DNA of 64,000 bases from the IMG/VR virus record IMGVR_UViG_3300032314_000513, positions 20,380 through 84,379 of that record. The stretch is one strand, 5' to 3'. Made by a program: the position numbers and the translations under genes. This stretch comes from a virus (Duplodnaviria > Caudoviricetes). The notes beneath the pieces were generated by a model. That model was not told the origin of the DNA, searched no databases, and worked only from the letters and a program-made list of their open reading frames with translations. This document shows positions 6,715 through 52,545 of the stretch, one piece after another. Position 1 is the first letter of the stretch, and every line of letters starts with the position of its first letter.

Positions 6715-6715
6715 T

Positions 6716-7308: not shown

Positions 7309-7318
7309 AAATAAAATA

Positions 7319-7438: not shown

Positions 7439-7444
7439 TTTAAC

Positions 7445-9052: not shown

Positions 9053-9059
9053 TTAAATA

Positions 9060-9455: not shown

Positions 9456-9467
9456 AATATATCCTTT

Positions 9468-9953: not shown

Positions 9954-9975
9954 AAGTTAAAAAAAACCATAAAAT

Positions 9976-10623
9976 ATGTTAGATTCAATATCTTGGGGAA
10001 ATCCTCTCCAAAAGCATCTGCCGTACATTGAAAAAGACAACTTGACTTTTCTTGAGAAGTATTATCCTCAACTAATCAAGTATAGTTTCCCAAAAAACAC
10101 TTCAAAAGCTACAAGAGAAGAATTAAATCAGCTTGTAGATAATATTGAAGTTGCTAAATCAAACCCTGAGCATCTTAAAAGATATAAAGCTTATGATAAT
10201 TCCCTTGTTAAAATATTTGGAGATGTAATTATTGAAAATAATTTAGGCGAAAAAGGAGCTGATTTGGTTGATAAGCTATTTGATGATACAGTTCCTTTAA
10301 TCCTCAAGCTTAAATTCTTTTTTCAAAGACCTAGGCCTTATCAATTGGCTTACGCTTATAAATTAAAACTTTTCCCATTTTCATCTCCATCTTCAGATTC
10401 CCCTTCTTATCCTGCAGGACATACTTTGCAGTCAGCTTTGATTTGCTATGTGTTGGGTAACCATTTCCCTGAAAAATTTGATTATTTTCAAAATCTAGCT
10501 AAAGACATAGAATACAGTAGATTGTTCTTAGGTTTACATTACCAATCAGATAATGATTTTTCTTTATATATGTATGACTTAATTATCAGAGATAAGGAGT
10601 TTAAGGCGAAATATGCTTTATAA
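9976..10623 (+). CDS. PAP2/haloperoxidase-family phosphatase
   Basis: KFFFQRPRP, SPSYPAGH, SRLFLGLHYQSD. Confidence 0.85.
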   Translation: MLDSISWGNPLQKHLPYIEKDNLTFLEKYYPQLIKYSFPKNTSKATREELNQLVDNIEVAKSNPEHLKRYKAYDNSLVKIFGDVIIENNLGEKGADLVDKLFDDTVPLILKLKFFFQRPRPYQLAYAYKLKLFPFSSPSSDSPSYPAGHTLQSALICYVLGNHFPEKFDYFQNLAKDIEYSRLFLGLHYQSDNDFSLYMYDLIIRDKEFKAKYAL

Positions 10624-11024
10624 TGCAATTACAACTAAAAGAAGGGAGAGTTACTTGGAAACAAGGGTGGGCTGAAATATCCGATAAAAGGTGCTACTTC
10701 AGAAGCCGTTGGGAATATAGGTATGCCCTTTATTTGGATTTAATGAAAAGACATAATCATATTATTGATTGGTTTTATGAACCGCAAACTTTTTATTTTG
10801 AAGGTATCAAAAGGGGTACAACAAATTATAAACCTGATTTCAAAGTAGTATTTCCAAGTGGTAACGAAGAATGGATTGAAGTTAAAGGATACATGGATGC
10901 TAAATCAGCAACCAAAATAAAAAGAATGGCTAAATACTTCCCTGAATTAAAATTAAGAGTAGTGGATGGTGATTGGTTCAAAGTTAATGCCTTAATGCTA
11001 AAAAAAGTTCTAAAAAATTGGTAA
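10623..11024 (+). CDS. PD-(D/E)XK endonuclease
   Basis: FRSRWE, YEP, YKPDF, IEVKG. Confidence 0.85.
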   Translation: MQLQLKEGRVTWKQGWAEISDKRCYFRSRWEYRYALYLDLMKRHNHIIDWFYEPQTFYFEGIKRGTTNYKPDFKVVFPSGNEEWIEVKGYMDAKSATKIKRMAKYFPELKLRVVDGDWFKVNALMLKKVLKNW

Positions 11025-11042
11025 AAAAAGCATAATTATACA

Positions 11043-11052
11043 TATATTTACA
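11043..11052 (+). promoter_or_regulatory. Putative -7 promoter box TATATTTACA
   Basis: Intergenic, upstream of the 11070 ATG. Confidence 0.6.
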
Positions 11053-11069
11053 ATGTGTAAAATTATACA

Positions 11070-11501
11070 ATGAACCAACAGAATGAAATTATATTACTTG
11101 AAGAGTTAATTTCTATAGTCAAAAACAAAGGCTATACCAAAACTTTAAATATTCTTAAAAAGAATAATACATCTTTTTTTGAGATAGATAATTCCTACGA
11201 TAAATTTGTCGTAAACCTAATTGCTAATACTTTTGAAATAGATTCAAATGACTTATTACAAAGTAGATATAGTAGAGGTAATATGAAATACGCTATTGGA
11301 TTTTGCGTTTATTATTTGTATCAAGAAAGAACACTTGGCTACATAGGTAAAAATATATTCAAGGATAAGAATTTAACTTTGCTATCAAGATATAGACAAA
11401 TGATATTCGAATTAACTAAAAAGGATTTACCTTATTACGAAATAAAAGAAGATTTAGATAAAAAAATAGAAAATTTTAAACTTAAAAATAAAGTTAAATG
11501 A
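11070..11501 (+). CDS. Helical protein, possibly DnaA-C-like HTH
   Basis: IANTFEIDSNDLL.SR...YAIGFCVYYL pattern; weak. Confidence 0.4.
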   Translation: MNQQNEIILLEELISIVKNKGYTKTLNILKKNNTSFFEIDNSYDKFVVNLIANTFEIDSNDLLQSRYSRGNMKYAIGFCVYYLYQERTLGYIGKNIFKDKNLTLLSRYRQMIFELTKKDLPYYEIKEDLDKKIENFKLKNKVK

Positions 11502-12649
11502 GTACTGAACAAAACATACCCACCGAAGAAGTAAAACCAAAACAATCTCCTTCTAATTATAATCCATTTTTGGAGCAAGTTAGTGAAAAGCCATATTCAA
11601 CTGTGAATGTTGGAGTTACCCAAGAACAATTAAAATCCTCTATTCCTGAGCCTGTTTATTCTCCTTTTTCAGTAGATTCAAACGAGAACCCATATAATAT
11701 GTTAGGCGGAGACGGACAGCCTAGTGGAGGAGGACAAAAAAGGGAATCAGCACCTTTTAATCCTATGATGAATGATGTTTCTGATGGAGATAAAAAAATG
11801 GGTGCACAGCACATGGCTAAATTATTAGTTGAAGGCTATGAGCAATTACATGTTTTTGGTAATAAAGCTTTGCAGGTACCTGAGAAAAAGATTAGGAAAA
11901 TGGAAAAGGAAGGACTTATAGATTTATCTATTCCGATTCCTTATGAATATGGTAAGACTATTACTGCAGGAGAATTTTTACAAGATTTCAATGAACAAAA
12001 TAAAGATGCTTTAACAGTATCAAGAGAATTTAAAAAAGAAGTTACTCCTGTATTAACTAGAGTTTTAGAAAAAAGAGGTGCAGGATTAACTGATGAGCAA
12101 TATTTAGGTTTTTTAGTTGGTAAAGATTTAGTGGTAAAATTAGTTATTGTAGCACAATTGCGTTCTACTATGAATGACATGATTAATGTAATTAAAGATT
12201 ATACAGAAGCTACAAGAGCAGGTGGTGGTGTACCTCCGCAGCCTCAAGCTCCTACTCCTCAAGCTCCTACTCCTCAACCATCAGCTCCACAGCCACAATA
12301 TCAAGAGCCTTCTCATTCAGCACCTGATTTTAACTTTCAAGATAATGAAGTGGTAATGAATAGTACAGTACAACAAATGCAAGTTCCTAGCACAGGTAAA
12401 GCAAGAGTTATTGCACAAATTCAAAAAGAAAAGAAATGGAAAAATGATGCGGATAAAGCAGGTGGGGGGTCATCTTACGAACAAGCTATGAAAGAAAGAA
12501 AAAATAGTGGCAAAAGAGGAAGAAAAAAAGCAAAAGATTATGTTGATGAAGTAAAAATGGATGAAGACCAAATTGCTGAAGCTATAATTTTGAATGAGAC
12601 TATTAATCAACCTAAAAAGGTTAAGGACCCTTACGCAGATTTAGATTAA
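11498..12649 (+). CDS. 383-aa protein upstream of the packaging ATPase
   Basis: Long ORF with QAPTP repeats; no recognised domain. Confidence 0.7.
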   Translation: MSTEQNIPTEEVKPKQSPSNYNPFLEQVSEKPYSTVNVGVTQEQLKSSIPEPVYSPFSVDSNENPYNMLGGDGQPSGGGQKRESAPFNPMMNDVSDGDKKMGAQHMAKLLVEGYEQLHVFGNKALQVPEKKIRKMEKEGLIDLSIPIPYEYGKTITAGEFLQDFNEQNKDALTVSREFKKEVTPVLTRVLEKRGAGLTDEQYLGFLVGKDLVVKLVIVAQLRSTMNDMINVIKDYTEATRAGGGVPPQPQAPTPQAPTPQPSAPQPQYQEPSHSAPDFNFQDNEVVMNSTVQQMQVPSTGKARVIAQIQKEKKWKNDADKAGGGSSYEQAMKERKNSGKRGRKKAKDYVDEVKMDEDQIAEAIILNETINQPKKVKDPYADLD

Positions 12650-12650
12650 T

Positions 12651-12938
12651 ATGAAAGTAAAAAATCAAGATTGGATTGAATTTAAAAAAACAATCATCTC
12701 TTTCATAAGGGTTTTTGAAAACGAATCTACAAAATTTGAATACCCAATTTGTCAAGATGAAGATTTTACCATTCTTGTTGAAGAGTGTGAAGTATTTCCT
12801 GTATTTACTAAAAAAGAAGATTTTTTAAAAATAGAATATGATTTTACACTATGTCAAACTAGTATTAGAACTTTAAGCTTTTCAAAATACAAAGATGCTG
12901 CAAGAATAGAAATTACTTTAAAAGATAAAAGTATTTAA
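12651..12938 (+). CDS. Hypothetical protein
   Basis: In-operon ORF. Confidence 0.6.
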   Translation: MKVKNQDWIEFKKTIISFIRVFENESTKFEYPICQDEDFTILVEECEVFPVFTKKEDFLKIEYDFTLCQTSIRTLSFSKYKDAARIEITLKDKSI

Positions 12939-12939
12939 T

Positions 12940-13761
12940 ATGGCAAGAGAACCTATGCTAATGGCTGCCTGTGGAAAGAAAGGGGTGGGTAAAAGTTATC
13001 AGCACATGATTCTCATGAACCAATATGTTCAAGGAGATTATTATAATGGTGTAAGAGGTAGAAAATGTTTGATAATGGATGTTAATGATGAATATGGTCA
13101 TGGTACTTATTATGTACAAGCTTTATCATTAAAAGATGTTTCATTATTTTCTGTACATCCTAATGTTGAAATTAGAAGAATTAGGCCGTTTCATCCAAAT
13201 GGAACTAGAATGACTTTAGATGAATGGGCTCAAGCTTTATTCTATGTTTTAAATAGATTCAGAAATGGTTTATTATTAATTGAGGATGTAAATAAATTTA
13301 TTGGAGACCATTTACCAAATGATTTAGTGGGTTCTATTGCAACTAATCGACATGTTGGTTTAGATATAATTCTTTCTTATCAGTCTTTAGGTAGAATTAA
13401 TACTAAGATTTGGGGTAATTTAAACCAATTAAGATTCCATAAAAACAATGAGAGTGTTGAAAGACATGCTTTAAAATTCCCTGATAAAGCCGAGTTTATG
13501 CGTATTGCAGAGATTATGGTTAATAATGAATATGCAAGAGGCAATAATAGATTTTTTTTATATGTAGATATGGATGAATCTAAAATTAGAGGTAATATTA
13601 ATGATGAATTAAGAGAAGAGGCTCTAAATCAATATATTAACGAAAACTACAATATTCTTTTAAAGCCATTTTTGGTACAAAGAGATGGCAACAAGAAAAA
13701 ACATACTACAGAAACTGCTATAAAAGAGATAAAACAGAGACTTACTTCAGCCTATTTTTAG
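12940..13761 (+). CDS. FtsK/HerA-superfamily genome packaging ATPase (P9/A32-like)
   Basis: N-terminal Walker A GKKGVGKS, IMDVNDEY, Walker B LLLIED, NRHVGLDIILSYQ (Arg finger and Gln). Confidence 0.88.
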   Translation: MAREPMLMAACGKKGVGKSYQHMILMNQYVQGDYYNGVRGRKCLIMDVNDEYGHGTYYVQALSLKDVSLFSVHPNVEIRRIRPFHPNGTRMTLDEWAQALFYVLNRFRNGLLLIEDVNKFIGDHLPNDLVGSIATNRHVGLDIILSYQSLGRINTKIWGNLNQLRFHKNNESVERHALKFPDKAEFMRIAEIMVNNEYARGNNRFFLYVDMDESKIRGNINDELREEALNQYINENYNILLKPFLVQRDGNKKKHTTETAIKEIKQRLTSAYF

Positions 13762-13802
13762 GCTTTTTGCTTGATTTTCAGGCTTATATACCCATCTAAT
13801 AC

Positions 13803-13836
13803 ACCCTTTCCTATTTATTCAGGAAGGGGTTTTTTT
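13803..13836 (+). terminator. Intrinsic terminator
   Basis: ACCCTTTCCT/AGGAAGGGGT stem, 8-nt loop, T run. Confidence 0.75.
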
Positions 13837-13928
13837 ATTTTCAACTAATTATATACATATAAAAGTAGCTATATAAAAAAGTTACAAAAAACTGATTAAT
13901 TTATTTCTATTAATGCCTAGTAATTACC

Positions 13929-13936
13929 TAAATTTG
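13929..13936 (+). promoter_or_regulatory. Bacteroidota-type -7 box TAAATTTG of the capsid operon
   Basis: Exact TAnnTTTG between the terminator and ATG 14002; another copy at 14947-14954. Confidence 0.6.
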
Positions 13937-14001
13937 ATATGTCAATGCTGAATCTGTATTCACAATGACACTTATTCATAAAACAATTAAATAGTATTAA
14001 G

Positions 14002-14109
14002 ATGAATTTCAAAGCAATCGCAGGACAATTACTAATCGTTGCAGGTGGTGTTGCTCTATACATGTTGGCTATAAAGCCTATGTTAGACAAAGCTAATGTA
14101 TCTAAGTAA
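14002..14109 (+). CDS. 35-aa membrane protein preceding the capsid gene (not in ORF track)
   Basis: MNFKAIAGQLLIVAGGVALYMLAIKPMLDKANVSK. Confidence 0.7.
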   Translation: MNFKAIAGQLLIVAGGVALYMLAIKPMLDKANVSK

Positions 14110-14165
14110 TCATAGAAGTAAACGAATTTAAAATCAAATTAATTCAAAATTAAAATTCATTAAAA

Positions 14166-14864
14166 ATGAGTAGTATTCAACGCTATTTACAAATGGCAAA
14201 CCGTCAAGTAAACGAATCGTTTATTGGCGTAGATGGTTTTGTAGACGATGACATGTATTTTGCAGCAGGAGATAATTTCTTCGGTGCAGACGGTACAGAA
14301 GCAGCTCCTGCTGCAGCACCTGCAGTTATGCGTTCTCAACCTTACATCTTAACAGTATCTAACGCTTCTAACGCAGCAGTTACTATTGATGTATTCGGAG
14401 CTTATATCTATTTGAACAACGCAGGTTTTTCAGGTGGAAGCTTAACAGTAAGCAATGTTACAATCACTTCAGGATTGTCAAATGTTACTTACTATAACTT
14501 ATTGAACCAATCATCTGTATCTCCTTTCACAATTGGAAGTACTTTGATTTCTTCAGTAAATGGTACAACTAGCCAAGTGTTACAACCTTTAACACTTAGC
14601 ACTTTAGATGCAAACGGTAACCAAGCAACTAAAATCTTAACTCCTGTTATTGACCCGTATCAACAACAAAGTGGTGTTATTGAATTGAAACAACCATTCA
14701 GAATTGATGGTTTCACTAAGTTAACTTTCAGCATTTATGCTTCAAGTTCTGTTCAATTCCAATTCTACCCTTCTGATACAATCAACATCGCAAGAGGTTT
14801 AGGTGGTAACGCTGTATCTAAGCAATATGGTAGTCCAAAAATTATCAGACCGGCTTCTCGTTAA
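14166..14864 (+). CDS. Probable major capsid protein, single-jelly-roll size
   Basis: Beta-strand-rich 232 aa, own terminator, TTC/AAC/ATC-rich codons, follows the ATPase; DANGN...IDPYQ. Confidence 0.7.
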   Translation: MSSIQRYLQMANRQVNESFIGVDGFVDDDMYFAAGDNFFGADGTEAAPAAAPAVMRSQPYILTVSNASNAAVTIDVFGAYIYLNNAGFSGGSLTVSNVTITSGLSNVTYYNLLNQSSVSPFTIGSTLISSVNGTTSQVLQPLTLSTLDANGNQATKILTPVIDPYQQQSGVIELKQPFRIDGFTKLTFSIYASSSVQFQFYPSDTINIARGLGGNAVSKQYGSPKIIRPASR

Positions 14865-14890
14865 TCCGAGTAGATTAGGAAAAATATAAG

Positions 14891-14933
14891 AAAGGGGCGA
14901 GAGTGTGATTTTATCTTACTCCGCCCTTTTTTT
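14891..14933 (+). terminator. Intrinsic terminator after the capsid gene
   Basis: GGGCG(A)GAGT...ACTCCGCCC stem followed by T7. Confidence 0.8.
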
Positions 14934-14958
14934 AATTAAAATTTAGTAAATTTGTGTT

Positions 14959-15378
14959 ATGTCATTACCTAGAGTAAATATATTCAACTATACCGCTGCA
15001 GCTAACCCTTATTTCGTTAAGAGTTTAGCCCATAAGTATGGTTATGAATTTGATAAGGACCAAAAATTAGATACTGTTTTACAACAACTAGTAACTTACG
15101 AAGGTGAACCTGTCATGATGGAAATAATTGAGAACAGTCCTGATAAGGATTTATTCATGGATTATTTTGAAAAGAAGTATGGCAAAAAAGAAGAAAAGAA
15201 TAATTCAAATGAATTAGGTGGTGCAAGACTACTTGATACTTATATGAATTTCACAGGACAACTACAAGCTGCACAACAAACTGCTGAAAATAAAATGTTG
15301 ACAAAAGAAACAAGTGTTATGGTTTTACTTGGTGCAGTTCTTATTTCATTCGCAATAATGTTTAAAAACAACAAATAA
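14959..15378 (+). CDS. Virion membrane protein, C-anchored, with NFTG
   Basis: C-terminal TM; YMNFTG. Confidence 0.75.
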   Translation: MSLPRVNIFNYTAAANPYFVKSLAHKYGYEFDKDQKLDTVLQQLVTYEGEPVMMEIIENSPDKDLFMDYFEKKYGKKEEKNNSNELGGARLLDTYMNFTGQLQAAQQTAENKMLTKETSVMVLLGAVLISFAIMFKNNK

Positions 15379-15379
15379 T

Positions 15380-16048
15380 ATGGCACTTTCAGCAATAGAA
15401 ACTGCAAAAGAATTAATTTCATACGCAGTCGTAACAGATAAGAATGGTTTAGTTAAGTTATTACAAAGAAATGGTATTGAGTTACCAAATAATCCTTCTG
15501 ACAACGAAGTAACAGTTGCTGTCTTGATGGCAAATAATAAAAGTGGTGTTTTCAGAAATGAATTAAAAAAATATTTAGGTGGGTTAGTTCCTGAAATATC
15601 TAATTATACAACAGAATTAGGTGGTGGAATGAACTTCACAGGTACAGATGATTTTTCTTTTACTGCAGGAGATGATAATTTTTATAATGCAACCGCTGCT
15701 GAGGCAAAAGCCTTAAGGGTATCAGCTACAAATCCTACAGGCAAAACTAAAGTAGGTTTAGCATTAGCAAGTATTGGAACTTTCTTTAAAGATAGTGTAC
15801 TTACAAAAGATAATATCAACGCAGGTATTAATATTGGTTTAACTAGTTTAGCTAATAAGACTCAAGCACAGCAAAATGCTGTTACTGCTCAGTCTTTACA
15901 ATTACAAAATTATCAAGATACTTTAAGACAACAATTACCTAATGCAGATAAGAAATCTAACACTATGTTATATGTATGGATTAGTGTTGGTGTGTTAGCT
16001 GTTGGTGTTTTAGGATTTGTTTTATACAAATCATATAAGAAGAAATAA
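15380..16048 (+). CDS. Virion membrane protein, C-anchored, with NFTG
   Basis: MNFTGTDDFSFTAGDDNFYNA; C-terminal TM then KSYKKK. Confidence 0.75.
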   Translation: MALSAIETAKELISYAVVTDKNGLVKLLQRNGIELPNNPSDNEVTVAVLMANNKSGVFRNELKKYLGGLVPEISNYTTELGGGMNFTGTDDFSFTAGDDNFYNATAAEAKALRVSATNPTGKTKVGLALASIGTFFKDSVLTKDNINAGINIGLTSLANKTQAQQNAVTAQSLQLQNYQDTLRQQLPNADKKSNTMLYVWISVGVLAVGVLGFVLYKSYKKK

Positions 16049-16239
16049 TGTCCAATAATAAAAAAATATTATTAATTGGAGGTGCTTTGGTAATAGCATA
16101 TCTTTTATTAAAAAAGAAAAAAAATACTTTGGTTAGTGAAAATGGAAAAGAAAAGATAGTGCAGTTTGACCCTATAAATGTTAAACCAATGCCATGGATA
16201 GGTGTTCCAAATTCACTTCCTGAAATTAAAATAAATTAA
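16048..16239 (+). CDS. N-anchored small membrane protein
   Basis: ILLIGGALVIAYLLLKKKK. Confidence 0.75.
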   Translation: MSNNKKILLIGGALVIAYLLLKKKKNTLVSENGKEKIVQFDPINVKPMPWIGVPNSLPEIKIN

Positions 16240-16240
16240 A

Positions 16241-16375
16241 ATGACTAAAGAGAATAAAGAATTATTATGGATAAGTGGATTTGTATTTGTTTTATATACA
16301 CTTTATAAGATATATGAAAAGAAATATCAATCAGTTCCTGATTCAGTAGTAATTCCAACAGAGTTCGAAAATTAA
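16241..16375 (+). CDS. 44-aa membrane protein (not in ORF track)
   Basis: MTKENKELLWISGFVFVLYTLYKIYEKK... Confidence 0.7.
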   Translation: MTKENKELLWISGFVFVLYTLYKIYEKKYQSVPDSVVIPTEFEN

Positions 16376-16402
16376 ATTAAATAACAAACAAAAACAAAAA
16401 TT

Positions 16403-16546
16403 ATGTTAAAAGGTAAAAATTTATGGATTTTATTAGGTGTAGGTGCTGTAGCATACTACTATTTTATGATGAAGAAGAAAAAAGATGCTGCTGCTTCTGC
16501 TCCTGCAACTGCTGCAACTAACTTCACAGGAACTATGGGATATTAA
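16403..16546 (+). CDS. 47-aa membrane protein, paralogue of the next gene (not in ORF track)
   Basis: MLKGKNLWILLGVGAVAYYYFMMKKKK...APATAATNFTG. Confidence 0.8.
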   Translation: MLKGKNLWILLGVGAVAYYYFMMKKKKDAAASAPATAATNFTGTMGY

Positions 16547-16570
16547 TTTTAAATTTTAAAAAATTAAAAA

Positions 16571-16843
16571 ATGTTAAAAGGTAAAAATTTATTGATTATT
16601 GCAGGTGTTGCTGCTGTAGGTTATTATTTATATAAGAAAAATCAAGATGCTAAAGTAATTGCTCCTGCAACTGCTGCAAAGAACTTCACAGGAGACTTAG
16701 ATGTTTTAGCAAATCAAAACTTTACAGGAGATTTAGGTGTTCTTAACGCAAGTGGTCCTAGCGATAGACAATTAAATAGATTAGAAAAAGTTATGACTAG
16801 AAATCCACAAAGAGCTCAAAGAATGATTAAAAGAATGTTCTAA
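16571..16843 (+). CDS. N-anchored membrane protein with two NFTGDL repeats
   Basis: MLKGKNLLII...; NFTGDL twice, then NASG. Confidence 0.8.
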   Translation: MLKGKNLLIIAGVAAVGYYLYKKNQDAKVIAPATAAKNFTGDLDVLANQNFTGDLGVLNASGPSDRQLNRLEKVMTRNPQRAQRMIKRMF

Positions 16844-16861
16844 TCAGATAATTTAAAAATT

Positions 16862-17254
16862 ATGACAAATACAAAAAAAGTATTGTTATACGCAGGTGCT
16901 GTTATAGTAGGTTACCATTTATGGAAATACTACAGTAAGCCTAAAAGCGTATTATTAAAAGGTTCTGATGCTGACACACCTGAAAAGGTAGAATATAGCA
17001 CAGGAAAAGAAGGTATGTTAGGTTCTGATGGTTCTTTAGATACAATGATTAATTTAAAGAAACCCATCTATATTAGACCTCAAAATTCTATTCCTAATGT
17101 TTATGATAGAGGTATTGGACAATTTATTAATGGTAGCGGTGGTTACATGAACGCAACAGGTTTTCATGAGAACTTAGCTACAGCTTGTAACGCTAAAACA
17201 GTTAAAAATTTAGGTGCTACAAAAATTGATATACCTATAATACCTCAAAACTAG
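16862..17254 (+). CDS. N-anchored membrane protein
   Basis: N-terminal TM; NGSG and NATG. Confidence 0.75.
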   Translation: MTNTKKVLLYAGAVIVGYHLWKYYSKPKSVLLKGSDADTPEKVEYSTGKEGMLGSDGSLDTMINLKKPIYIRPQNSIPNVYDRGIGQFINGSGGYMNATGFHENLATACNAKTVKNLGATKIDIPIIPQN

Positions 17255-17257
17255 AAA

Positions 17258-17398
17258 ATGAATAAAACAACAAAATACATTTTAATTTATGCTGCAGTAG
17301 CAGGTGGAGTTTATTTACTTTATAAACAATATCAAGTTATGCAAAATAAATTAGATGGAGATTCCGCTTTAAAAAAGTGGAACGCACAACACAATTAA
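17258..17398 (+). CDS. 46-aa membrane protein (not in ORF track)
   Basis: MNKTTKYILIYAAVAGGVYLLYKQY... Confidence 0.7.
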   Translation: MNKTTKYILIYAAVAGGVYLLYKQYQVMQNKLDGDSALKKWNAQHN

Positions 17399-17408
17399 AA
17401 TAAAAACA

Positions 17409-17645
17409 ATGGCAGAGGCAAAAGATATATTAGATAAAGTAAAACAATTAAAATCTAATTCTGAAAGCATGGCCTTAAAGAAAATGAAAGGAACTGTTTC
17501 AGGAGCATTGATTGGCATGGGTGGAGGCTTACTAATAGGATTTACAAGAGGCTATAGTTTAGTCTCTTCTGCGTTTGTAGGAGCTTTACTTGGTGGTGTT
17601 ATATCTCAAGTTTTATTACCTAAATTAGATGATAATAATGAATAA
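17409..17645 (+). CDS. Gly-zipper two-TM membrane protein
   Basis: GALIGMGGGLLIG and GALLGG. Confidence 0.7.
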   Translation: MAEAKDILDKVKQLKSNSESMALKKMKGTVSGALIGMGGGLLIGFTRGYSLVSSAFVGALLGGVISQVLLPKLDDNNE

Positions 17646-18324
17646 TAAGTACATCAAAATGGCAGCTTTGGCTGCTATCGCAATAGGTGGTTATTTAGTG
17701 ATTAAAAATTTACTAGGTAAATCTGTTGGTACGCCTAAGCAAGTGGGTGATTCCGAAGCAGGAACAAGTAATGGTAAGGCTACAGTTTCTAATTATTTCC
17801 CTTTGGCTAAAGGTAGTAAAGGAGAAAAGGTTCGAGAACTACAGACTATTTTAGTAGGTATTGATGCAAACGCATTACCTAAATACGGTATTGATGGAGA
17901 CTTTGGAAGTGAAACAGAAGCTGCTTTATTTAAGTATTTGAATAAGAAAAGTGTTGATAATCAAGAAGATATAGCTACTTTAAATTCTTTAAAGACTACC
18001 GCACAATCTAAAGCTTTAGCATCTTCAATAAACGCTAATAGAAGTATAACTGCGAATGAAATTATCAATAATTGGAAGTTAAACAATACTAAAAGTGTTT
18101 ATGCAGCGAACGACTTAGGATATGTTATAGGAGATTTATCAGCATCAGGCTTAGAATTAAACGCTGTAAACAAATACGCCAAGAAAGGTGATGTTATTGT
18201 TAATGGATTTGAAATTAAAGATATGAAAGTACTACCTAGTGGATACATTATGGCTTCAATAGGTGTACTTGGCCTTGGGGGTAAATTTGCTAAATTTAGT
18301 CCTTTCGGTGTGATGATAAATTAG
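17638..18324 (+). CDS. Membrane-anchored peptidoglycan-binding-domain protein
   Basis: N-terminal TM; LAKGSKGEKVRELQ...IDGDFGSETEAAL (PG_binding_1); start moved to Met4. Confidence 0.8.
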   Translation: MNNKYIKMAALAAIAIGGYLVIKNLLGKSVGTPKQVGDSEAGTSNGKATVSNYFPLAKGSKGEKVRELQTILVGIDANALPKYGIDGDFGSETEAALFKYLNKKSVDNQEDIATLNSLKTTAQSKALASSINANRSITANEIINNWKLNNTKSVYAANDLGYVIGDLSASGLELNAVNKYAKKGDVIVNGFEIKDMKVLPSGYIMASIGVLGLGGKFAKFSPFGVMIN

Positions 18325-18352
18325 TAATTTTAAAGCAAAAAATAACCATAAA

Positions 18353-18643
18353 ATGGAAGAAGTGAATTTAGATAAAAAGCTTACTGCTAACCAACTTTTT
18401 AAAGAATATAAAGACGAGGGTGGCACATTGAATTTTTCAGATTGGTTGACTAGAGAAAAGACAAAAGGTATTTTCCCTATAAATTCTAATCTAAATCAAG
18501 AAGTAGGTAAAAAATTAACTGATTTAAAACAAGAAGAAATGAATAAAACAGTTTTAGGTTTCCCTGTAAGCACCTTATTAATAGCAGGTGGAGTAATCAT
18601 AGTAGCAATAGTTGCTGTTAATGTATTAAAAAAGAAAGCATAA
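18353..18643 (+). CDS. C-anchored membrane protein
   Basis: ANQLFKEY...FSDWL; C-terminal TM then KKKA. Confidence 0.75.
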   Translation: MEEVNLDKKLTANQLFKEYKDEGGTLNFSDWLTREKTKGIFPINSNLNQEVGKKLTDLKQEEMNKTVLGFPVSTLLIAGGVIIVAIVAVNVLKKKA

Positions 18644-18924
18644 TGAAAAAAGATAATTTTATTTGGTGGGTATTAGGTGGCGTTGGAGCTGTTGCTCTTT
18701 GGTATTATTATCAGAATAATAAAAAGAAAGTAACAACACAAGACTTAATAGTTGATGTTCTTAAAGAAGAGCAAGATAAGTATAGTACTCCTTTTAAGGC
18801 TGAGTACAATATAGTCATGCCTTCTGATTTAGTGTCAAAGAGAGTAAGAGAAAAAGGAGAACAATTAAGAGCAGGTAGATTTGAAATCCAACCTGATAAA
18901 GTACAAGCACCTTTATTTATATAA
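18643..18924 (+). CDS. N-anchored membrane protein
   Basis: FIWWVLGGVGAVALWYYY. Confidence 0.75.
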   Translation: MKKDNFIWWVLGGVGAVALWYYYQNNKKKVTTQDLIVDVLKEEQDKYSTPFKAEYNIVMPSDLVSKRVREKGEQLRAGRFEIQPDKVQAPLFI

Positions 18925-18925
18925 G

Positions 18926-19732
18926 ATGCAGTACAAATTGTGGACAAGATATGAACCTGTAATGGTTAAAGTTGTGGTAAAAACAAATTCACCTCAACTT
19001 ATTGTGTTAAAGGCATTTGACCCAACACAAGCCAATACAGTTTTTATGGAAAGGGAAAAAACCATTGAAGGAGTACAAGAGTTGTATGTAAGGATGCCAT
19101 TATCCCCTAGTTCAACTGCTCTATCAATTTATAATAAAAAAAATGGCAACTTACCAAAAGGTAAGGATAGTTCTTTTGAAGTAGTGGAAATTAAAAAAGA
19201 AGATTTGGACATTACCTTGGGTCAAACCAAAATGGACAATTCTTTAGTTAGGAATTTTGTTGCTTTTGCTCAGAAGTTTGCATTTAACGCAGGTTGGATA
19301 CAAGCTCCAAAAGATTATATAAGTACAGTAGGTGCTTTTAAAATTGAATACTTACCTTATATAACAAACAACAAAACAAATGCAAAGATGGCTACACCTG
19401 CTCGTATAAGTACCAAGAATGGTCGTATACAAGTGTCTCAGGAAGCTTTCTTACCATTTACTATTCCTATGAGAATGGCAATATTATTACATGAGTTTAG
19501 CCATTTTTATTTGAATAGCGATATTTCTAATGAGACTGAAGCGGATTTGAACGGACTTACAATTTATTTAGGATTGGGCTACCCTATCAAAGAGGCCTAT
19601 TCTGCTTTTATAGATACCTTTATTGGTTATCCTACAGAACAGAACAAAAGAAGATATGATATAATCAATAGGTTCATAAAGGACTATATTGAAGAATATA
19701 AAATAAAAGATGTCTACGCTGTAGGCGAATAA
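18926..19732 (+). CDS. Zincin metallopeptidase
   Basis: ILLHEFSHFY and NETEAD; start moved to ATG 18926 (MQYKLW). Confidence 0.75.
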   Translation: MQYKLWTRYEPVMVKVVVKTNSPQLIVLKAFDPTQANTVFMEREKTIEGVQELYVRMPLSPSSTALSIYNKKNGNLPKGKDSSFEVVEIKKEDLDITLGQTKMDNSLVRNFVAFAQKFAFNAGWIQAPKDYISTVGAFKIEYLPYITNNKTNAKMATPARISTKNGRIQVSQEAFLPFTIPMRMAILLHEFSHFYLNSDISNETEADLNGLTIYLGLGYPIKEAYSAFIDTFIGYPTEQNKRRYDIINRFIKDYIEEYKIKDVYAVGE

Positions 19733-19742
19733 AATTAAAGTT

Positions 19743-20270
19743 ATGGCAGATAAAGGTGCTTTACGAGTTTATACAGAATTACCACAATGGGCTAAAGGTG
19801 TTGTAGTCGTGGGTGGACTTGTTGTAGGTTACATAGCTGTTACTGCTATTTTAAGAAAGATAAAAGAAGCTAAAACTAAAGCAGAATCTTTAACAGAAGT
19901 TAACGATGCTACTAATGAATTACAAACTGAAGTAAAAAATGGTAAAAGACCAACAATAGCTAAAACAACTGTTGAAGCAATGGCTAATGCAATTGTAGCA
20001 GCTTCAAATGATTGTGGAACAGATGAAGAAAAAATTTATTCTCAATTTGATAAAGTAAGTAATCAAGCAGATGTTTTATTATTGGTTCAAGTATTTGGTT
20101 TAAGACAAAAAGTAAGATGTCCTTTCTCAGATGACCCTAGAGAGTCTTTCTTCTCAGCAAATACACCTCCAATGTCATTATCAGCTATGTTAAATTCAGA
20201 ATTGGATACAACACAGATGCAGACTTTGAACAATAAATTAGCAACAAAAGGAATTAAATATAAATTTTAA
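19743..20270 (+). CDS. N-anchored membrane protein with helical domain
   Basis: TM GVVVVGGLVVGYIAV; GTDEEKIY. Confidence 0.75.
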   Translation: MADKGALRVYTELPQWAKGVVVVGGLVVGYIAVTAILRKIKEAKTKAESLTEVNDATNELQTEVKNGKRPTIAKTTVEAMANAIVAASNDCGTDEEKIYSQFDKVSNQADVLLLVQVFGLRQKVRCPFSDDPRESFFSANTPPMSLSAMLNSELDTTQMQTLNNKLATKGIKYKF

Positions 20271-22531: not shown

Positions 22532-22807
22532 ATGGGAGCAACTAATATTTGGTCTAAAACAATTACTAATGATTCATTAACTGTATCAGCTAGTCAAAAT
22601 GTAGTTAGAATATCAATTTTAGCTAGACAAGGACCTGTAACTCTTTTAGGTACAGCAACCTTTAATGGTGCTGCATCAGATTTAGTTACTTTTGCTACGG
22701 GCCAAGGTGTAACACTAACTGCAGCATCAACACAAAATCCAATTGATGGAGTATCTATAAATGTTGCAGGTGGTGGAATAGCAGATGTAGTATTATCTTA
22801 TCAATAA
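22532..22807 (+). CDS. Small all-beta protein, vertex or fibre-base candidate
   Basis: 91 aa of alternating strands just before the fibre genes. Confidence 0.5.
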   Translation: MGATNIWSKTITNDSLTVSASQNVVRISILARQGPVTLLGTATFNGAASDLVTFATGQGVTLTAASTQNPIDGVSINVAGGGIADVVLSYQ

Positions 22808-46880: not shown

Positions 46881-47177
46881 ATGGCAACAGCAAAAACTAC
46901 AGCAAAAAAAATTGATACACATGATGAATTATCATCAAGAGTAAATCACATAGAGAGGACAATTTTAAAAATTAGTCCTCAAATTGATGAAATTTATAAA
47001 GTAATAGTTGGTAATGAAGCTTTTCAACAAGAAGGCCTTATTTCAAGAGTTAAAAAATTAGAAGACCAAAACGAAAAGACTAATGCTTTAAGAAATAAAT
47101 TAATGGGAGCATTTGTGGTAGGTGGTGCAGTTTGGACAATTTTATGGGAAGTAATAAAAAATAGCTTTTTTAAATGA
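46881..47177 (+). CDS. Coiled-coil protein with C-terminal TM
   Basis: EGLISRVKKLE; GAFVVGGAVWTILW. Confidence 0.7.
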   Translation: MATAKTTAKKIDTHDELSSRVNHIERTILKISPQIDEIYKVIVGNEAFQQEGLISRVKKLEDQNEKTNALRNKLMGAFVVGGAVWTILWEVIKNSFFK

Positions 47178-47605
47178 TACCAAAAGGAGACCCTACAGCT
47201 ATAAATCCTATTCAAAAAATGTTCTCTAAGGGGGACTTAAAAAAAATAGGTACTGCAGATGCAATAGGACAGATTGTTGAATTAGCCTCTTCTGTAGCAG
47301 GTGGTGTAGCAGCTATAAATGATGCTAAAAAAGCTCAACAGTTTCAAAACTATTTGTCTAATCTTAGCGATGACCAACAACAAGCTTTGATTAATTCAAT
47401 AGATAAGGCTAAAACAGAGGAAGAGACATATAGAATTATTGCTGCTGTTATACAAAATGCTCAAGCAAAAAGGGTTGAAAATCTTGCAGGTGTATTAGTA
47501 CAACAAGAGCAGATAAATAGGAAAATTAGAATAGAAAAGATAGTTATTATGTCTTTATTAGGTGTATTAGCTATTGCTTTAATCTATTCAAGAAAAAAAG
47601 ATTAA
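47174..47605 (+). CDS. C-anchored helical membrane protein
   Basis: Paralogue of 48108; C-terminal TM. Confidence 0.7.
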   Translation: MIPKGDPTAINPIQKMFSKGDLKKIGTADAIGQIVELASSVAGGVAAINDAKKAQQFQNYLSNLSDDQQQALINSIDKAKTEEETYRIIAAVIQNAQAKRVENLAGVLVQQEQINRKIRIEKIVIMSLLGVLAIALIYSRKKD

Positions 47606-48105
47606 TGCAAAACGAAACCATAAAAAGAGAAAACGATAAAAGGATTGATGAGTTGGAGGCTGCTATAGTTGATAATTTAGAATTGGTTGAATGTCCTGTT
47701 GTGCACAGATTCACAGATGGATTGTACATTAGGGAAATATTCATGCCAAAAGATTCATTATTAACTAGTAAGATTCATAATACTAATCATCCATATACTA
47801 TCTCAAAAGGGATAGCGATGGTACAAATTGATGCAGGAGAATGGATTGAGTTGGCTGCTCCTTATACAGGTATAACTGTAGCAGGAACAAGAAGGGTTTT
47901 ATATATTGTTGAAGATTGTATTTGGACAACATATCATCCATTAGGAGATATGAAATTGTCTTATAATGATTTAACTGAAGAGGAAAAACAAAATATAGTA
48001 GATGAAATTGAAAATGAAATAATAGAACCGCATCAAAATTATATTACAGGAACTAATATTCATTTAGATTATAAACAAAAGATTGATAAAAATAAAATTG
48101 ATTAA
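47605..48105 (+). CDS. Cupin-fold phage protein
   Basis: HRFTDGLYIREIFMP, SKIH, GTRR, WTTYH. Confidence 0.7.
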   Translation: MQNETIKRENDKRIDELEAAIVDNLELVECPVVHRFTDGLYIREIFMPKDSLLTSKIHNTNHPYTISKGIAMVQIDAGEWIELAAPYTGITVAGTRRVLYIVEDCIWTTYHPLGDMKLSYNDLTEEEKQNIVDEIENEIIEPHQNYITGTNIHLDYKQKIDKNKID

Positions 48106-48107
48106 TT

Positions 48108-48458
48108 ATGGCATGGTTAATGACAGGAGCATCAGTTGTTCAAGCAGGTACCGCAGTAGCGAGTACAATTGCAAGTACAAGAGATAATAGATTAAGAACA
48201 CAATATGAACAACAGTTAGGTTTATTAGACTTTGACCAAAAAAAGCAATTAAATGATGCTTTGATTAAAGCCCAAGATGAAACATCTAGGCAGCAAATAT
48301 TAGCAAATGCTTTAGGAGGTGTTAGTCAAGCTAGAGTACAAACTTTTGGAAATATTGCTTTAGAAAGAGAAAAAACTAATCAAGTTGTAACTATTCTAGG
48401 AGTTGTTGCAGGTATTGGTCTTTTAGGTTTCTTATTATACACAACTAAAAAATCATAA
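48108..48458 (+). CDS. C-anchored membrane protein, ejection-protein-like N-terminus
   Basis: MAWLMTGASVVQAG; C-terminal TM. Confidence 0.65.
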   Translation: MAWLMTGASVVQAGTAVASTIASTRDNRLRTQYEQQLGLLDFDQKKQLNDALIKAQDETSRQQILANALGGVSQARVQTFGNIALEREKTNQVVTILGVVAGIGLLGFLLYTTKKS

Positions 48459-48459
48459 A

Positions 48460-48822
48460 ATGGCAATTTTAGAAGGACAAATATTAACGCCAAATAAAAA
48501 GTCTATTTTGGCAGATGAGCTTAAACTTGAGTTAGATAACTTAAATAAAGCCATAGCTTTAGGCGGTATTGATGCAGGTCAAAAACAAGCAATAGATGCT
48601 AGTAAAGTGGCTATTCAAAAAGTTTTAAATAGTATATTAAGCAAAAGAGGGGTTGTTACTCCTGATGAAACGGATAACGCTTTAAAGAAAATTGATGAAG
48701 CTAAAAGAGCAAGACTTCAAAATGATTTTTATGGAAGTATCAAAAAATATGGAATTTATATAGCTATAGCTATTGTTGCAGGAGCAGGATTATATTATTA
48801 TACAAAAAATAGTGCAAAATGA
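48460..48822 (+). CDS. C-anchored membrane protein
   Basis: YIAIAIVAGAGLYYY. Confidence 0.7.
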   Translation: MAILEGQILTPNKKSILADELKLELDNLNKAIALGGIDAGQKQAIDASKVAIQKVLNSILSKRGVVTPDETDNALKKIDEAKRARLQNDFYGSIKKYGIYIAIAIVAGAGLYYYTKNSAK

Positions 48823-49151
48823 ATACGAATGTAAAAAAACTTTTATTAATTTTTGGAGGTGGATTTTTGCTTTTTTGGGCTTTTAAAAAAATAAAGCCTA
48901 TTGATGTTAAAAAGAAAAGTACATCTAAATCAGATTCAAATGCTTCTGCTGATGGAAATTCTGAAGAAAAAATTAAAAATGCTAAAATATGCTTAAAAGC
49001 ATTTATGGAAGCAAAAAAAGCAGGTGAATCAAAAGAATTTTTAGCTGATATGAATAGAGAGTTTTCTAAAGAGTATGGCTTAAAAGTAATGCCTAATAAA
49101 AGTAACGGTAAATTATTTATAGCTGATTTAGAAGGTAATAAAGTTATATAA
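48819..49151 (+). CDS. N-anchored membrane protein
   Basis: LLLIFGGGFLLFWAFKK. Confidence 0.7.
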   Translation: MNTNVKKLLLIFGGGFLLFWAFKKIKPIDVKKKSTSKSDSNASADGNSEEKIKNAKICLKAFMEAKKAGESKEFLADMNREFSKEYGLKVMPNKSNGKLFIADLEGNKVI

Positions 49152-49162: not shown

Positions 49163-49834
49163 ATGGCAGAAGTACAGGCTTTAGCATTAACGCAGGAACA
49201 ATTACTGCAATTTCAGATAGTAAATAATACAAATTTTCCTATCCCTAACATTCCGTTTTTAACACAGAATGATAGTTTTAATGCTACAACTCAATATCAA
49301 TATACACTTCCACCAAATCTTAATATACCAACTGTAATAACGCCTGTTGTTACTATTTTAAATACACCTGCATTACAAACAATAATTCCTATTGATGTTA
49401 CTACAGGAACTCAACTTACTTATGAGCAAATAACTACATCTATTAGTACTAATAATTATAGTACTAATTTCTTTTATGCTCAATCTGTAAGTTGTAATCA
49501 AGTAGGTCAGGTATTTACATATAATGATACTGATATAGCAGGTAATGGAACTGTAAATGCACTTCCATTTACTATTGACCCTTATCAAAAACAATGTGCT
49601 GTTTATTATTATCCTCCTGAAAATCTTGTAACTTTTAATGGTACTAGTTCATTAAACTTTACTATGTTAGCTGATACTACATTAAATTTAAAAGTATTTT
49701 CTAGTAGTACTTCTCCTTCTCAAATATTAGATGAAATATCAGGATACAAAGACAATGCTTTTACAGAAATAGAAGCGGCTATGGGTTCTGATGTATTTAC
49801 TGATTATTGTAACTATTTAATTGATAACGAATAA
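49163..49834 (+). CDS. Paralogue of the putative major capsid protein
   Basis: DIAGN...IDPYQKQ aligns with DANGN...IDPYQQQ. Confidence 0.7.
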   Translation: MAEVQALALTQEQLLQFQIVNNTNFPIPNIPFLTQNDSFNATTQYQYTLPPNLNIPTVITPVVTILNTPALQTIIPIDVTTGTQLTYEQITTSISTNNYSTNFFYAQSVSCNQVGQVFTYNDTDIAGNGTVNALPFTIDPYQKQCAVYYYPPENLVTFNGTSSLNFTMLADTTLNLKVFSSSTSPSQILDEISGYKDNAFTEIEAAMGSDVFTDYCNYLIDNE

Positions 49835-52545
49835 TGCCAAGTTTTACAATAAATATTAATGGAGATAACTATACAGTAGGCTATGATGGAACATTTAATA
49901 GTCCACAAGGCTTACTTCCTGCATTAAATAATTTAGGATTTGGTACATTTTGGATAGAACAAGTTAGTGGAAATAATGTATTAACTACAACAGACAATGT
50001 TAATGTATATTCAACTGCTGAGACTAATTCTGACCCAACTACGACTACTACAACAAGTACGACTACAACAAGTACTACTATAGCTCCTATTCCAACAAGT
50101 ACGACCACTAGTACAAGTACTACAACGACTACAGAAACTTCTACAAGTACAACTACAACGAGTACAACACTTGCTCCGACAACGAGTACGACCACAACTA
50201 CAACTACTCCTGCAGGACCAACAACAACGAGTACGACAACAACTACTACAACATTATTTGCTCAAACAGTAAGATATGCAAGTAATCAAACAGATGCTTG
50301 TTTAAATCCAACAGGTACTCAGAATGTAACAGGTAACGCTACATCTTTTTGTGGTTGTACGATATTTAATTCAGCAGGTTTTGTAACGCTTCCTAATGGA
50401 AACTATGTTTTAGCTTATAGCGGTAGCACTTTAAATATTAATATTTCAGGATTCCCAACTACAACTGCAACTGTTTATGGTGGTGGATGCGGAACTTGTC
50501 CTTTAAGTACTTCAACTACCACTACAAGTACTACCCTACAACAAGTTTGGTATCAATTAACAAATTGTAATGGAGGCGGTACTGTTTATACAACAAATTA
50601 TGATATTGGCTATGCAATAGTAGGTGATAGAGTATTTGGAACTGTTTTAGGTGTTCCTTCAACTTTAGTAGTGGCAAGTGTATTATTTAGCAACCCCGGT
50701 GGAACTCAAATAGGGATTGTTAATTCAGGGTTAACAGGCTGTCCTGCTTCTACTACAACTACTACAACTACTACAACATTACCTCCTGTAACTTTAGATT
50801 TAACTGCTAATTGTACAGGAGTTACGCAAACAATAACGATAGATAATTTCGCAGGTGGTGATGGTGTAACTTATTATGCAAATGACACTACTTATGATAA
50901 TCCTTCTTCTGCATCAGGTGGAGCTACAAGCATTATCGTAGGTGGAACTAGAACTTATAATAATCAACCAAACGGAACTAGATATATATATGTTTTTAGT
51001 GCAAGTAGAAATACTGTTAAACAAGGTGGTCAAACTGATTGTGTAACTACAACAAGTACAACTACAACTACTACAACTATACAACAAGTATGGTATGCAA
51101 TGGATATTTGTGATGTAGGTGGAACAGCTAATTCGACAAATTATGATATTGGCTATGCTGCAGTAACAGACAGGGTGTTTGGGACAGTTTCAGGCACTCC
51201 AAGAACATTAGTAGTTACTTCAGTATTAACTTCAGACCCCGGTGGAACACAAATAGGGATTACTAATTCAGGTTTAACAGGTTGTCCTACCACTACAAGT
51301 ACTACGACTACTACTACTACCCAAGCACCTGTCAATGCAAGTGTTAACTCGGTATGTACAGGAATTACGCAAACAATAACTGTAAATAACTTTACAGGTG
51401 GAGATGGAGCAACATATTATGCTAATACAACTACTTATGCAGACCCTGTAAGTGCTGCTGCAGGTCCTGTTACTTTAGTAATTGGTGGAACAAGAGATTA
51501 TCTAAATCAAACAAATGGTACTAGATATATTTATATAACATCTACAATCAGAACAAATGTTGTATCAGGTGGTCAAGTTTGTACAACAACAACAACTACT
51601 ACTTCTACTTCAACAAGTACAACAAGCACAACTTTTACAACTAGCAGTACAACAACTACGACTACTCTTCCTCCAATTAATGTTACTATAAGCTCGGTGT
51701 GTACAGGAGTTACTCAAACAATAAGTTTAAATTCATTCAGCGGTGGAGATGAAACTACTTATTTTGCAAGTGACACAACTTATTCTAGTCCTGCCTTAGC
51801 AGTTGCAGGTCCAACAAGTATAATTGTAGGAGGAACAAGAAGTTATACAAATCAGCCAAATGGAACAAGATATGTATATGTAACATCAGGAAATGTTAAT
51901 GTTATTAAGCAAGATGGTCAAACTTGTACTACGACAACTTCTACTACAACAAGTACAACTACTTTACCAATAACTAGTACTACAACTACGACTACAACTT
52001 TGCCAATAACTAGTACAACTACGACTACAACAACTTTACCTCCTGTAACTGCTAATATTAGCTCAGTTTGTACAGGAATTACCCAAACAATAACAGTTGA
52101 TACATTTGGCGGTGGAAGTGGAACTTATTTTGCAAGTACGACAACTTATGGAGACCCTGCAAGTGCAGCATCAGGTCCTGTAACTTCAGTTTCAGGCTCA
52201 AGAGATTATACAAATCAGCCAAATGGTACACGATATGTATATGTAACTTCAACAGGTGGTGCTCCTGTAGTGAAGCAAGGCGGACAAACTTGTACTACGA
52301 CAACTTCTACTACAACAAGTACAACTACTACTGCTCCAACTTGTACATCTTGGAATGTAGCTAATTTTAATGGATTTGGATTAACTGATACTGTTTTCTA
52401 TGTAGATTGTGCAGGTACTTCTACATCTCAAATTGTAAATGACGGCAATCAATTTGATATTTGTGTATTAGATTCAGGAATACCTACTCCTTATATGGAA
52501 TTTGGATATGGTTCAGTTAATACTAATTCAACCCCTTGCACTTAA
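49834..52545 (+). CDS. Thr-rich mucin-like surface protein with Cys-bounded repeat domains
   Basis: Poly-Thr linkers; two QVWY domains and four CTG[VI]TQT domains. Confidence 0.85.
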   Translation: MPSFTININGDNYTVGYDGTFNSPQGLLPALNNLGFGTFWIEQVSGNNVLTTTDNVNVYSTAETNSDPTTTTTTSTTTTSTTIAPIPTSTTTSTSTTTTTETSTSTTTTSTTLAPTTSTTTTTTTPAGPTTTSTTTTTTTLFAQTVRYASNQTDACLNPTGTQNVTGNATSFCGCTIFNSAGFVTLPNGNYVLAYSGSTLNINISGFPTTTATVYGGGCGTCPLSTSTTTTSTTLQQVWYQLTNCNGGGTVYTTNYDIGYAIVGDRVFGTVLGVPSTLVVASVLFSNPGGTQIGIVNSGLTGCPASTTTTTTTTTLPPVTLDLTANCTGVTQTITIDNFAGGDGVTYYANDTTYDNPSSASGGATSIIVGGTRTYNNQPNGTRYIYVFSASRNTVKQGGQTDCVTTTSTTTTTTTIQQVWYAMDICDVGGTANSTNYDIGYAAVTDRVFGTVSGTPRTLVVTSVLTSDPGGTQIGITNSGLTGCPTTTSTTTTTTTQAPVNASVNSVCTGITQTITVNNFTGGDGATYYANTTTYADPVSAAAGPVTLVIGGTRDYLNQTNGTRYIYITSTIRTNVVSGGQVCTTTTTTTSTSTSTTSTTFTTSSTTTTTTLPPINVTISSVCTGVTQTISLNSFSGGDETTYFASDTTYSSPALAVAGPTSIIVGGTRSYTNQPNGTRYVYVTSGNVNVIKQDGQTCTTTTSTTTSTTTLPITSTTTTTTTLPITSTTTTTTTLPPVTANISSVCTGITQTITVDTFGGGSGTYFASTTTYGDPASAASGPVTSVSGSRDYTNQPNGTRYVYVTSTGGAPVVKQGGQTCTTTTSTTTSTTTTAPTCTSWNVANFNGFGLTDTVFYVDCAGTSTSQIVNDGNQFDICVLDSGIPTPYMEFGYGSVNTNSTPCT

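Follow-up and report, generated by a model that had tools for sequence, protein, structure and literature searches.

A diverged paralogue of a putative capsid protein as candidate base for a Thr/Ser-rich spike in a virus from IMG/VR

Introduction

What is the role of a protein that resembles the probable shell protein of its virus when its gene lies far from the shell gene and directly before a long Thr/Ser-rich gene? The question arises from a stretch of viral DNA of 64,000 nucleotides (hereafter the window), comprising bases 20380-84379 of an 84,379-base IMG/VR virus record. A preliminary description of the window had pointed to a capsid-protein paralogue (here gene A) 35 kb from its counterpart (here gene B) and coupled to a Thr-rich spike gene. 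Two roles were offered for its product, namely a minor capsomer or penton mounting the spike, or a second major capsid protein (MCP). No member of the virus group has been cultured or described in the collections searched, and its virion parts can be assigned only by arguments of this kind.

A penton-type spike base related to a shell protein is in itself a known kind of part. New here are the A family, its clear sequence-level paralogy with a probable shell protein, and a set of forms in which one and the same junction is separate, fused, anchored or split. Among characterized viruses, the pentons of HCIV-1 and HHIV-2 are single beta-barrels that touch the membrane and hold their spikes by added beta-strands; the penton protein, VP9, reaches the membrane with a terminal extension and serves a variety of spikes as adaptor (PMC6414509). 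The penton base is part of the spike protein in PM2 and phiCjT23 and separate in FLiP (PMC9719478).

Gene A and its conserved neighbourhood

Gene A was found as described, as a plus-strand open reading frame of 223 aa whose TAA stop overlaps the ATG of the following 903-aa gene. The features of this module are as follows.

46881..49151, plus strand: six small co-oriented genes 5' of A (ORFs), their order conserved with A and the spike gene
49163..49834, plus strand: gene A, ORF of 223 aa, diverged paralogue of the putative capsid protein and proposed spike base
49190..49309, plus strand: N-terminal arm of A (residues 10-49), first segment of the spike adaptor domain, moved onto A in the window's clade
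49334..49732, plus strand: core domain of A (residues 58-190), a predicted beta-sandwich common to the ~155-aa family and B
49784..49825, plus strand: conserved C-terminal tail of A (G.D.F.DYCNYLID), with invariant columns in 23 homologues
49832..49836, plus strand: TAATG stop/start overlap of A and the spike gene, read as gaaTAATGcca
49834..52545, plus strand: spike gene, Thr/Ser-rich ORF of 903 aa

Close homologues of A numbered 41 (45-100% identity), none of them named. Residues 12-17 are almost invariant in the family, and across 23 homologues the columns of the C-terminal tail are more conserved than those of the core. A related motif, F-F-x-D/N-Y, ends the stand-alone ~155-aa relatives and stands before the linker in relatives that are anchored or fused. 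The head-to-tail junction of A and spike recurs in 10 related loci, and the order of small genes, A and spike is kept in 15. Most of the six small upstream proteins have a hydrophobic end, as judged by eye on the translations and unscored.

Two genes before the A module, positions 47605-48105 (plus strand) encode a 166-aa protein that is 90-96% conserved in close relatives and has matches to PHROG 12032 'short tail fiber protein' (E 5e-28) and PHROG 24280 'tail fiber adhesin' (E 7e-17). Scans of eight virion-region proteins gave zero matches to tailed-phage structural families.

A peptidoglycan hydrolase is encoded immediately 5' of the A-type gene in distant relatives, of GH108 type in L005 (9363-10001) and of glucosaminidase type in L031 (2885-3418) and L032 (6875-7408); the corresponding slot in the window holds a 110-aa protein with an N-terminal hydrophobic segment. 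A hydrolase beside an A-type gene suggests a vertex or entry module.

Gene B and the packaging ATPase

The probable shell protein is encoded 34,997 bases upstream of A, just after a putative packaging gene.

12940..13761, plus strand: putative genome-packaging ATPase, 273 aa, with a Walker A motif in the translation, just upstream of B
14166..14864, plus strand: gene B, putative major capsid protein of 232 aa, with the A-homologous region at residues 106-213 (nucleotides 14481-14804)

The ATPase gave weak PHROG matches to terminase and Zot-type ATPases and no match to PDB sequences. Homologues of B are abundant (n = 351), with identities of at least 80% among the 120 matches listed. B is read as the probable shell protein from its gene position, conservation, size and abundance of homologues. 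In all five relatives compared it is more conserved than the ATPase (78-99.6% against 69-94.5%).

Homologues of B with 54-97% identity also occur on three short contigs (L028, L029 and L030) of a prokaryote genome collection, whose MAG labels fall in three phyla (Gammaproteobacteria, Bacteroidetes and Chlamydiae). Wrong binning of viral contigs is the most likely explanation, and the labels therefore give no host assignment.

A and B are related by sequence

Direct comparison by BLASTP aligned A and B over 93 residues at 26% identity (E 3e-5), in agreement with the earlier proposal of a capsid-protein paralogue at this distance. Profile-profile comparison with hhalign was significant for 23 close homologues of A against 19 of B (92.6% probability, E 4.6e-7), and stronger for a diverse 81-sequence A profile against the B family (98.1%, E 1.1e-13, 105 columns). 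The homologous portion of A is its C-terminal two thirds. Against the 433 six-frame ORFs of the window, the A profile recovered A itself (2e-46) and B (1.7e-17), the next ORF following at 0.86; the B profile in turn recovered A at 7e-6, and the matches between the two are both reciprocal and unique. Two bridging B-like proteins align to both, P0234 with E 4e-23 to B and 3e-14 to A, and P0307 with E 4e-24 to B and 5e-9 to A. In five related records (53-84 kb) the A-family profile matched exactly two places each, A at ~1e-45 and B at ~1e-18, with the two orthologues 25-33 kb apart.

The two genes are almost certainly paralogues. It could be argued that their similarity is due to chance or composition and that adjacency to the spike is functionally meaningless, given a pairwise identity of only 26% and the Asn-, Thr- and Ser-rich composition of both proteins. 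However, the profile matches are composition-corrected as well as reciprocal and unique, bridging sequences align to both proteins, the same pair is present in five other genomes, and the fusions and split domain described below tie A to the spike. The profile-profile match, the recurrence of the pair in five records and the reciprocal window matches refute this explanation, which we regard as extremely improbable.

Three aligned blocks had been put forward in the preliminary description. The first two (D.AGN...IDPYQ.Q and F.G...L.F...) lie within the single BLASTP alignment. The third, YILTVSN with LQFQIVN, does not hold, the N-termini of A and B giving a probability of 0.07% (E 0.67) in hhalign; this portion of A shows homology to the spike N-terminus of relatives (E 2e-8). 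The first adaptor hairpin might conceivably correspond to the N-terminal hairpin of B, a weaker proposal that reached no more than 10% probability (E 0.003, 17 columns).

A small beta-rich ORF of 91 aa at 22532-22807 (plus strand), lacking a hydrophobic segment and situated just before collagen-like fibre genes, would fit a small vertex or cement protein in size; profile searches of the window ORFs detected no similarity between it and A or B.

An unnamed family with a jelly-roll-like core

A search of 1.8 billion cluster representatives (E <= 0.001) with the profile of close A homologues (A1) retrieved 298 clusters, mostly proteins of ~150-160 aa aligning to A residues ~60-220. Two long repeat proteins among the hits (P0268 and P0301), in which only a 30-residue motif was matched many times over, were discarded as non-relatives. 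Judged by these alignments, A belongs to a large unnamed family of ~155-aa proteins. Pfam and PHROG scans returned no family for A, B, the spike or the adaptor of the adaptor-bearing relatives, and 81 A-family members searched against PHROG gave scattered single matches only (E >= 4.6e-4). PDB sequence searches with the A and B profiles yielded nothing usable (best profile match E 0.097), tblastn of A, B and two distant relatives against 50,697 GenBank phage records found no match, and look-ups in the ESM Atlas gave no usable match.

Structure prediction depended on alignment depth. With close homologues only, AlphaFold2 reached a mean pLDDT of 54, too poor for use, and Foldseek matches were weak; with the 81-sequence alignment the mean rose to 74.7, and ten-residue-block means were 93-97 over residues 101-180 and 80-88 over residues 71-100. 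The model places a helix at residues 87-96, followed by strands at 98-108, 117-123, 129-135, 146-149, 162-165 and 174-183. Jelly rolls usually have a helix between strands C and D, and we read the predicted order as strands D to I after such a helix; the confident model does not resolve strands 1 and 2 of the putative barrel.

The size of the confident beta-rich core fits the single eight-stranded jelly-roll core of ~100-150 residues that marks vertex base proteins of membrane-containing tailless viruses (VP9, P31 and the PM2 P1 N-domain). Its best structural neighbour was a nucleoplasmin-type pentameric jelly roll (Z 5.0-5.4, rmsd 3.3-3.9 A over 81-86 residues), a resemblance of structure alone, with no sequence or functional link between A and the nucleoplasmin/nucleophosmin core. 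Capsid proteins scored lower, phiCjT23 at Z 4.5, PRD1 P3 at Z 4.1 and the satellite tobacco mosaic virus coat at Z ~4; C2 domains and carbohydrate-binding modules scored level with them, so that the capsid jelly rolls (Z 4.0-4.5) did no better than unrelated sandwiches. All these values are below 8 and within the noise range stated for the tool. Foldseek with the better model found nothing at E <= 0.001 in the PDB or BFVD. The predicted fold of A can be called jelly-roll-like only tentatively.

A spike adaptor that is separate from A or fused to it

The gene after A encodes a long Thr/Ser-rich protein, and its orthologues span at least 598 to 1364 aa (several end at a contig edge) with 30-36% Ser+Thr. 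In the 15 related viral loci a Thr/Ser-rich gene always follows A head-to-tail behind the same run of small genes, and the distant loci L005, L022 and L033 have the same pair of an A gene and an adaptor-starting gene. A gene that begins with adaptor sequence thus stands directly after A in every context read (the 15 viral loci together with L005, L022 and L033). The window's own spike contributes one element:

49840..50055, plus strand: N-terminal domain of the spike (residues 3-74), second segment of the adaptor

The adaptor, a domain of ~120 residues, was found via longer members of the A family. Its consensus reads F-x-I-x-N-N-T ... T-x-Y-x-W-D-I ... A-L-N-x-L-G-x-G-x-F ... Y-G-x-L-T. A complete copy begins the downstream gene in L005, L017-L021, L022 and L033; in L022 the match (E 2e-29) is followed by a Thr run.

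Among 149 cluster representatives of the A family, the commonest architecture is the stand-alone soluble form of ~155 aa (79/149). Fusion of the A core to a following adaptor, with or without spike modules, occurs in nine, and the adaptor precedes the core in three others. At L031 and L032 a fused gene occupies the same syntenic slot directly after the peptidoglycan hydrolase gene, and these loci carry no separate A. At least 37 of the representatives, about a quarter, end in a hydrophobic anchor after a linker, a count based on our own simple hydropathy rule, and one anchored A-type protein sits in the same syntenic slot.

Beyond the adaptor, the fused relatives P0214, P0262 and P0207 vary in content, with PKD and leucine-rich repeats (LRR), Thr-rich linkers and unknown domains. 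Such variation would be expected if these are receptor-binding ends that can be swapped.

Gene fusions are standard evidence that separately encoded proteins interact. The coupling of A to a Thr-rich spike, proposed earlier, is borne out by the conserved gene pair, the fusions and a domain common to both proteins. On such genomic grounds (the invariant pair, the fusions and the split shared domain) A very probably partners with the spike, and the two would associate physically.

The adaptor is split between A and the spike in the window's clade

Comparison with relatives whose spike carries the whole adaptor indicated that the domain is divided in the window. The first segment matches A: residues 10-51 align with spike residues 3-45 of the nearest sister locus, L033 (42% identity, E 2e-8), and residues 11-49 with spike residues 4-42 in L017, L019 and L020 (43% identity, E 2-4e-7), while a profile of the A N-terminus was placed on the adaptor alignment in the same register by hhalign (65% probability, E 6e-5). 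The second segment is retained by the spike, whose residues 3-33 match residues 52-79 of the L033 spike (E 8e-4) and whose N-terminus shows 46-47% identity to residues 53-120 of unsplit spikes (E 1e-10 to 8e-9). The HMM of the adaptor of fused relatives matched spike residues 11-76 at E 2.5e-5 among the 433 ORFs.

Sensitivity was lower for the first segment in HMM searches. An HMM from 11 distant fused adaptors matched the A N-terminus only at E 0.12-0.2, and with an HMM of the adaptor's first half A was absent among the top matches listed for the window ORFs, probably owing to Asn/Thr-rich composition. Support for this half of the split accordingly comes from the pairwise and profile-profile comparisons with closer relatives.

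The distribution of the two segments is strictly complementary between A and spike. All 10 loci with an A of 223-224 aa have a spike that starts at the second adaptor segment; in all five viral loci with an A of 165 aa, as well as in L005, L022 and L033, the spike contains the adaptor in full. Where the spike adaptor is complete, the arm-less A is 157-227 aa long. In a tree of 183 core domains, rooted on B-like proteins and built after exclusion of fragments, two repeat-protein false positives and domains of < 100 residues, all 37 A proteins that carry the arm fall into a single clade (support 0.996), which lies within forms of 148-175 aa. The split therefore arose once, as a derived state.

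The general jelly-roll fold places the first strand beside the last, which would explain how an adaptor, or a piece of one, can be attached at either end of the core.

A diverges with the spike

Identity to the window was compared in five relatives (Table 1). B is the most conserved of the proteins compared, and the pattern over the five relatives indicates that the divergence of A tracks that of the spike rather than that of the shell protein.

Table 1. Amino acid identity to the window's proteins in five relatives
G001: B 99.6%; ATPase 91%; A 91%; spike N-terminus 88%
G004: B 97%; ATPase 94.5%; A 80%; spike N-terminus 79%
G005: B 98%; ATPase 94%; A 66%; spike N-terminus 57%
G003: B 82%; ATPase 70%; A 37%; spike N-terminus 47%
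G002: B 78%; ATPase 69%; A 38%; spike N-terminus 46%

These rates bear on the choice between the two roles first suggested. As a second MCP, A would form pseudo-hexameric capsomers with B as in the Halopanivirales, and a spike or fibril would stand on many or all capsomers. Exactly two paralogues are present per genome in 6/6 records; B, with only ~108 of 232 residues aligning to the single A core, is below the size needed for a double jelly roll; and known vertical single-barrel viruses use two lattice proteins (PMC6414509). Should the lattice require two single-barrel proteins, as in the Halopanivirales, A would be one of the pair. The large glycosyltransferase gene set would also suit a virion covered in glycosylated fibrils. 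Against this, A has a rate of divergence four to ten times that of B and in step with the spike, the genes lie 35 kb apart whereas those of the Halopanivirales are consecutive, and homologues in the same database number 351 for B and 41 for A. Relatives also fuse A to variable receptor-type modules (PKD, LRR) or to an anchor, which would be unusual for a lattice subunit. A second-MCP role thus seems unlikely. Of the original pair of suggestions, the better fit is a minor capsomer or penton carrying the spike, and a second MCP fits less well: A diverges with the spike N-terminus while B is nearly invariant, A lies away from B and the ATPase, and relatives carry fusions or anchors.

A candidate vertex or spike-base protein

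The reading that we favour builds on the observed paralogy, gene pairing, fusions, split and evolutionary rates. Gene A would be a diverged duplicate of the gene for the probable shell protein B, retaining a beta-sandwich core of jelly-roll appearance. Its product would have left the general lattice to serve, close to the capsid or membrane, as the base that carries the Thr-rich spike, and would most likely be the protein of the five-fold vertex (penton-type). The spike would dock via the ~120-residue adaptor, which most relatives have in one piece, either at the start of the spike or joined to the A core. In the window's clade the first beta-hairpin of this domain (~40 residues) has moved to the N-terminus of A. 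With the hairpin on A, the adaptor could fold only when A and spike come together, and such fragment complementation would lock the two proteins to each other. The rates, anchors and fusions of the A family agree with the properties known for vertex proteins, which favours a vertex or spike-base role; taken as a full chain, we consider this account somewhat more likely than not.

An alternative retains the spike-holding function and places it outside the shell. A would then be a spike foot in the membrane or atop B capsomers, at positions other than or besides the five-folds, with the capsid fold reused for anchoring. The C-terminal membrane anchor in at least 37/149 representatives speaks for such an arrangement, as do the position of the module among small membrane proteins (in relatives directly after a peptidoglycan hydrolase) and the equal match of non-capsid beta-sandwiches to the fold. 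However, A keeps core sequence motifs of B, beyond mere fold, and the stand-alone soluble form of 155 aa is the commonest (79/149). In known membrane-containing icosahedral viruses, moreover, the single-barrel protein that holds the spike is the penton (PMC6414509). We give placement outside the shell a rather low probability.

Relation to known vertex and capsid systems

A close parallel to the proposed vertex role is VP9 of HCIV-1 and HHIV-2 (Sphaerolipoviridae, Halopanivirales). Like VP9, A is a small protein, predicted to form a single beta-barrel, from a tailless virus with membrane proteins; the A family has membrane-anchored variants, and A would share strands with the spike. Unlike VP9, to which A has no detectable sequence similarity, A has a barrel known from prediction, is recognizably paralogous to a putative shell protein, and is encoded with its spike 35 kb from the capsid and ATPase genes. 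The window's virus also has a genome about three times larger than those of sphaerolipoviruses, which are roughly 30 kb (PMC12643093).

Both known arrangements of base and spike recur within the A family. Nine representatives, together with L031 and L032, join A and spike modules in one polypeptide, as in the fused penton bases PM2 P1 and phiCjT23 P13; most other members keep base and spike as separate genes, as in FLiP and in PRD1 (P31/P5). Unlike any of these four viruses, the A family has a third state, in which the connecting domain is split between two polypeptides. A further difference is the single-barrel size of shell protein B, as opposed to a double jelly roll; among proteins of the latter kind the smallest known has 239 residues with a 183-residue core (PMC9719478).

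The two-MCP pairs of the Halopanivirales include VP16/VP17 as well as VP4/VP7. The window's virus resembles the VP4/VP7 system in its pair of proteins with single-barrel size, alongside a packaging ATPase and numerous membrane proteins. It differs in gene arrangement, B following the ATPase and A lying 34,997 bases downstream, whereas the two MCP genes of HCIV-1 are consecutive (PMC6414509). The rates of A and B are also very unequal, and A is tied to a spike. No third, penton-like paralogue was detectable among the 433 window ORFs with the A and B profiles.

More tentatively, the entire lattice may be built from B alone, as a single vertical single-barrel protein, with A as a penton derived by duplication of B; we give this arrangement a rather low probability. 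An architecture of one barrel plus its own paralogous penton has been proposed as a forerunner of two-MCP and double-jelly-roll capsids. If B were the sole lattice protein, the case would bear on how single-barrel capsids relate to two-protein and double-barrel designs, and a B lattice with A pentons would be a simple architecture, here in a group of bacterial viruses that is abundant and has genomes of at least 84 kb.

A likely spike base descended from a shell protein would give this virus group a concrete vertex module, composed of A, the adaptor domain and the spike. The A family would offer a natural series on how tailless viruses swap host-recognition spikes while the shell stays constant. 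Should the favoured reading be correct, living relatives of A record the passage from capsid protein to spike base, in separate, fused, membrane-anchored and split-domain-locked forms. The split adaptor lends itself to direct testing as an example in which complementation of one small domain would join two virion proteins.

The part of the genome 5' of the window (L003, genome bases 1-20000) encodes two N6/N4 DNA methylases, a MoxR-type AAA ATPase and a glycosyltransferase, together with the polyvalent-protein domains ART-PolyVal, LPD29 and DUF5661.
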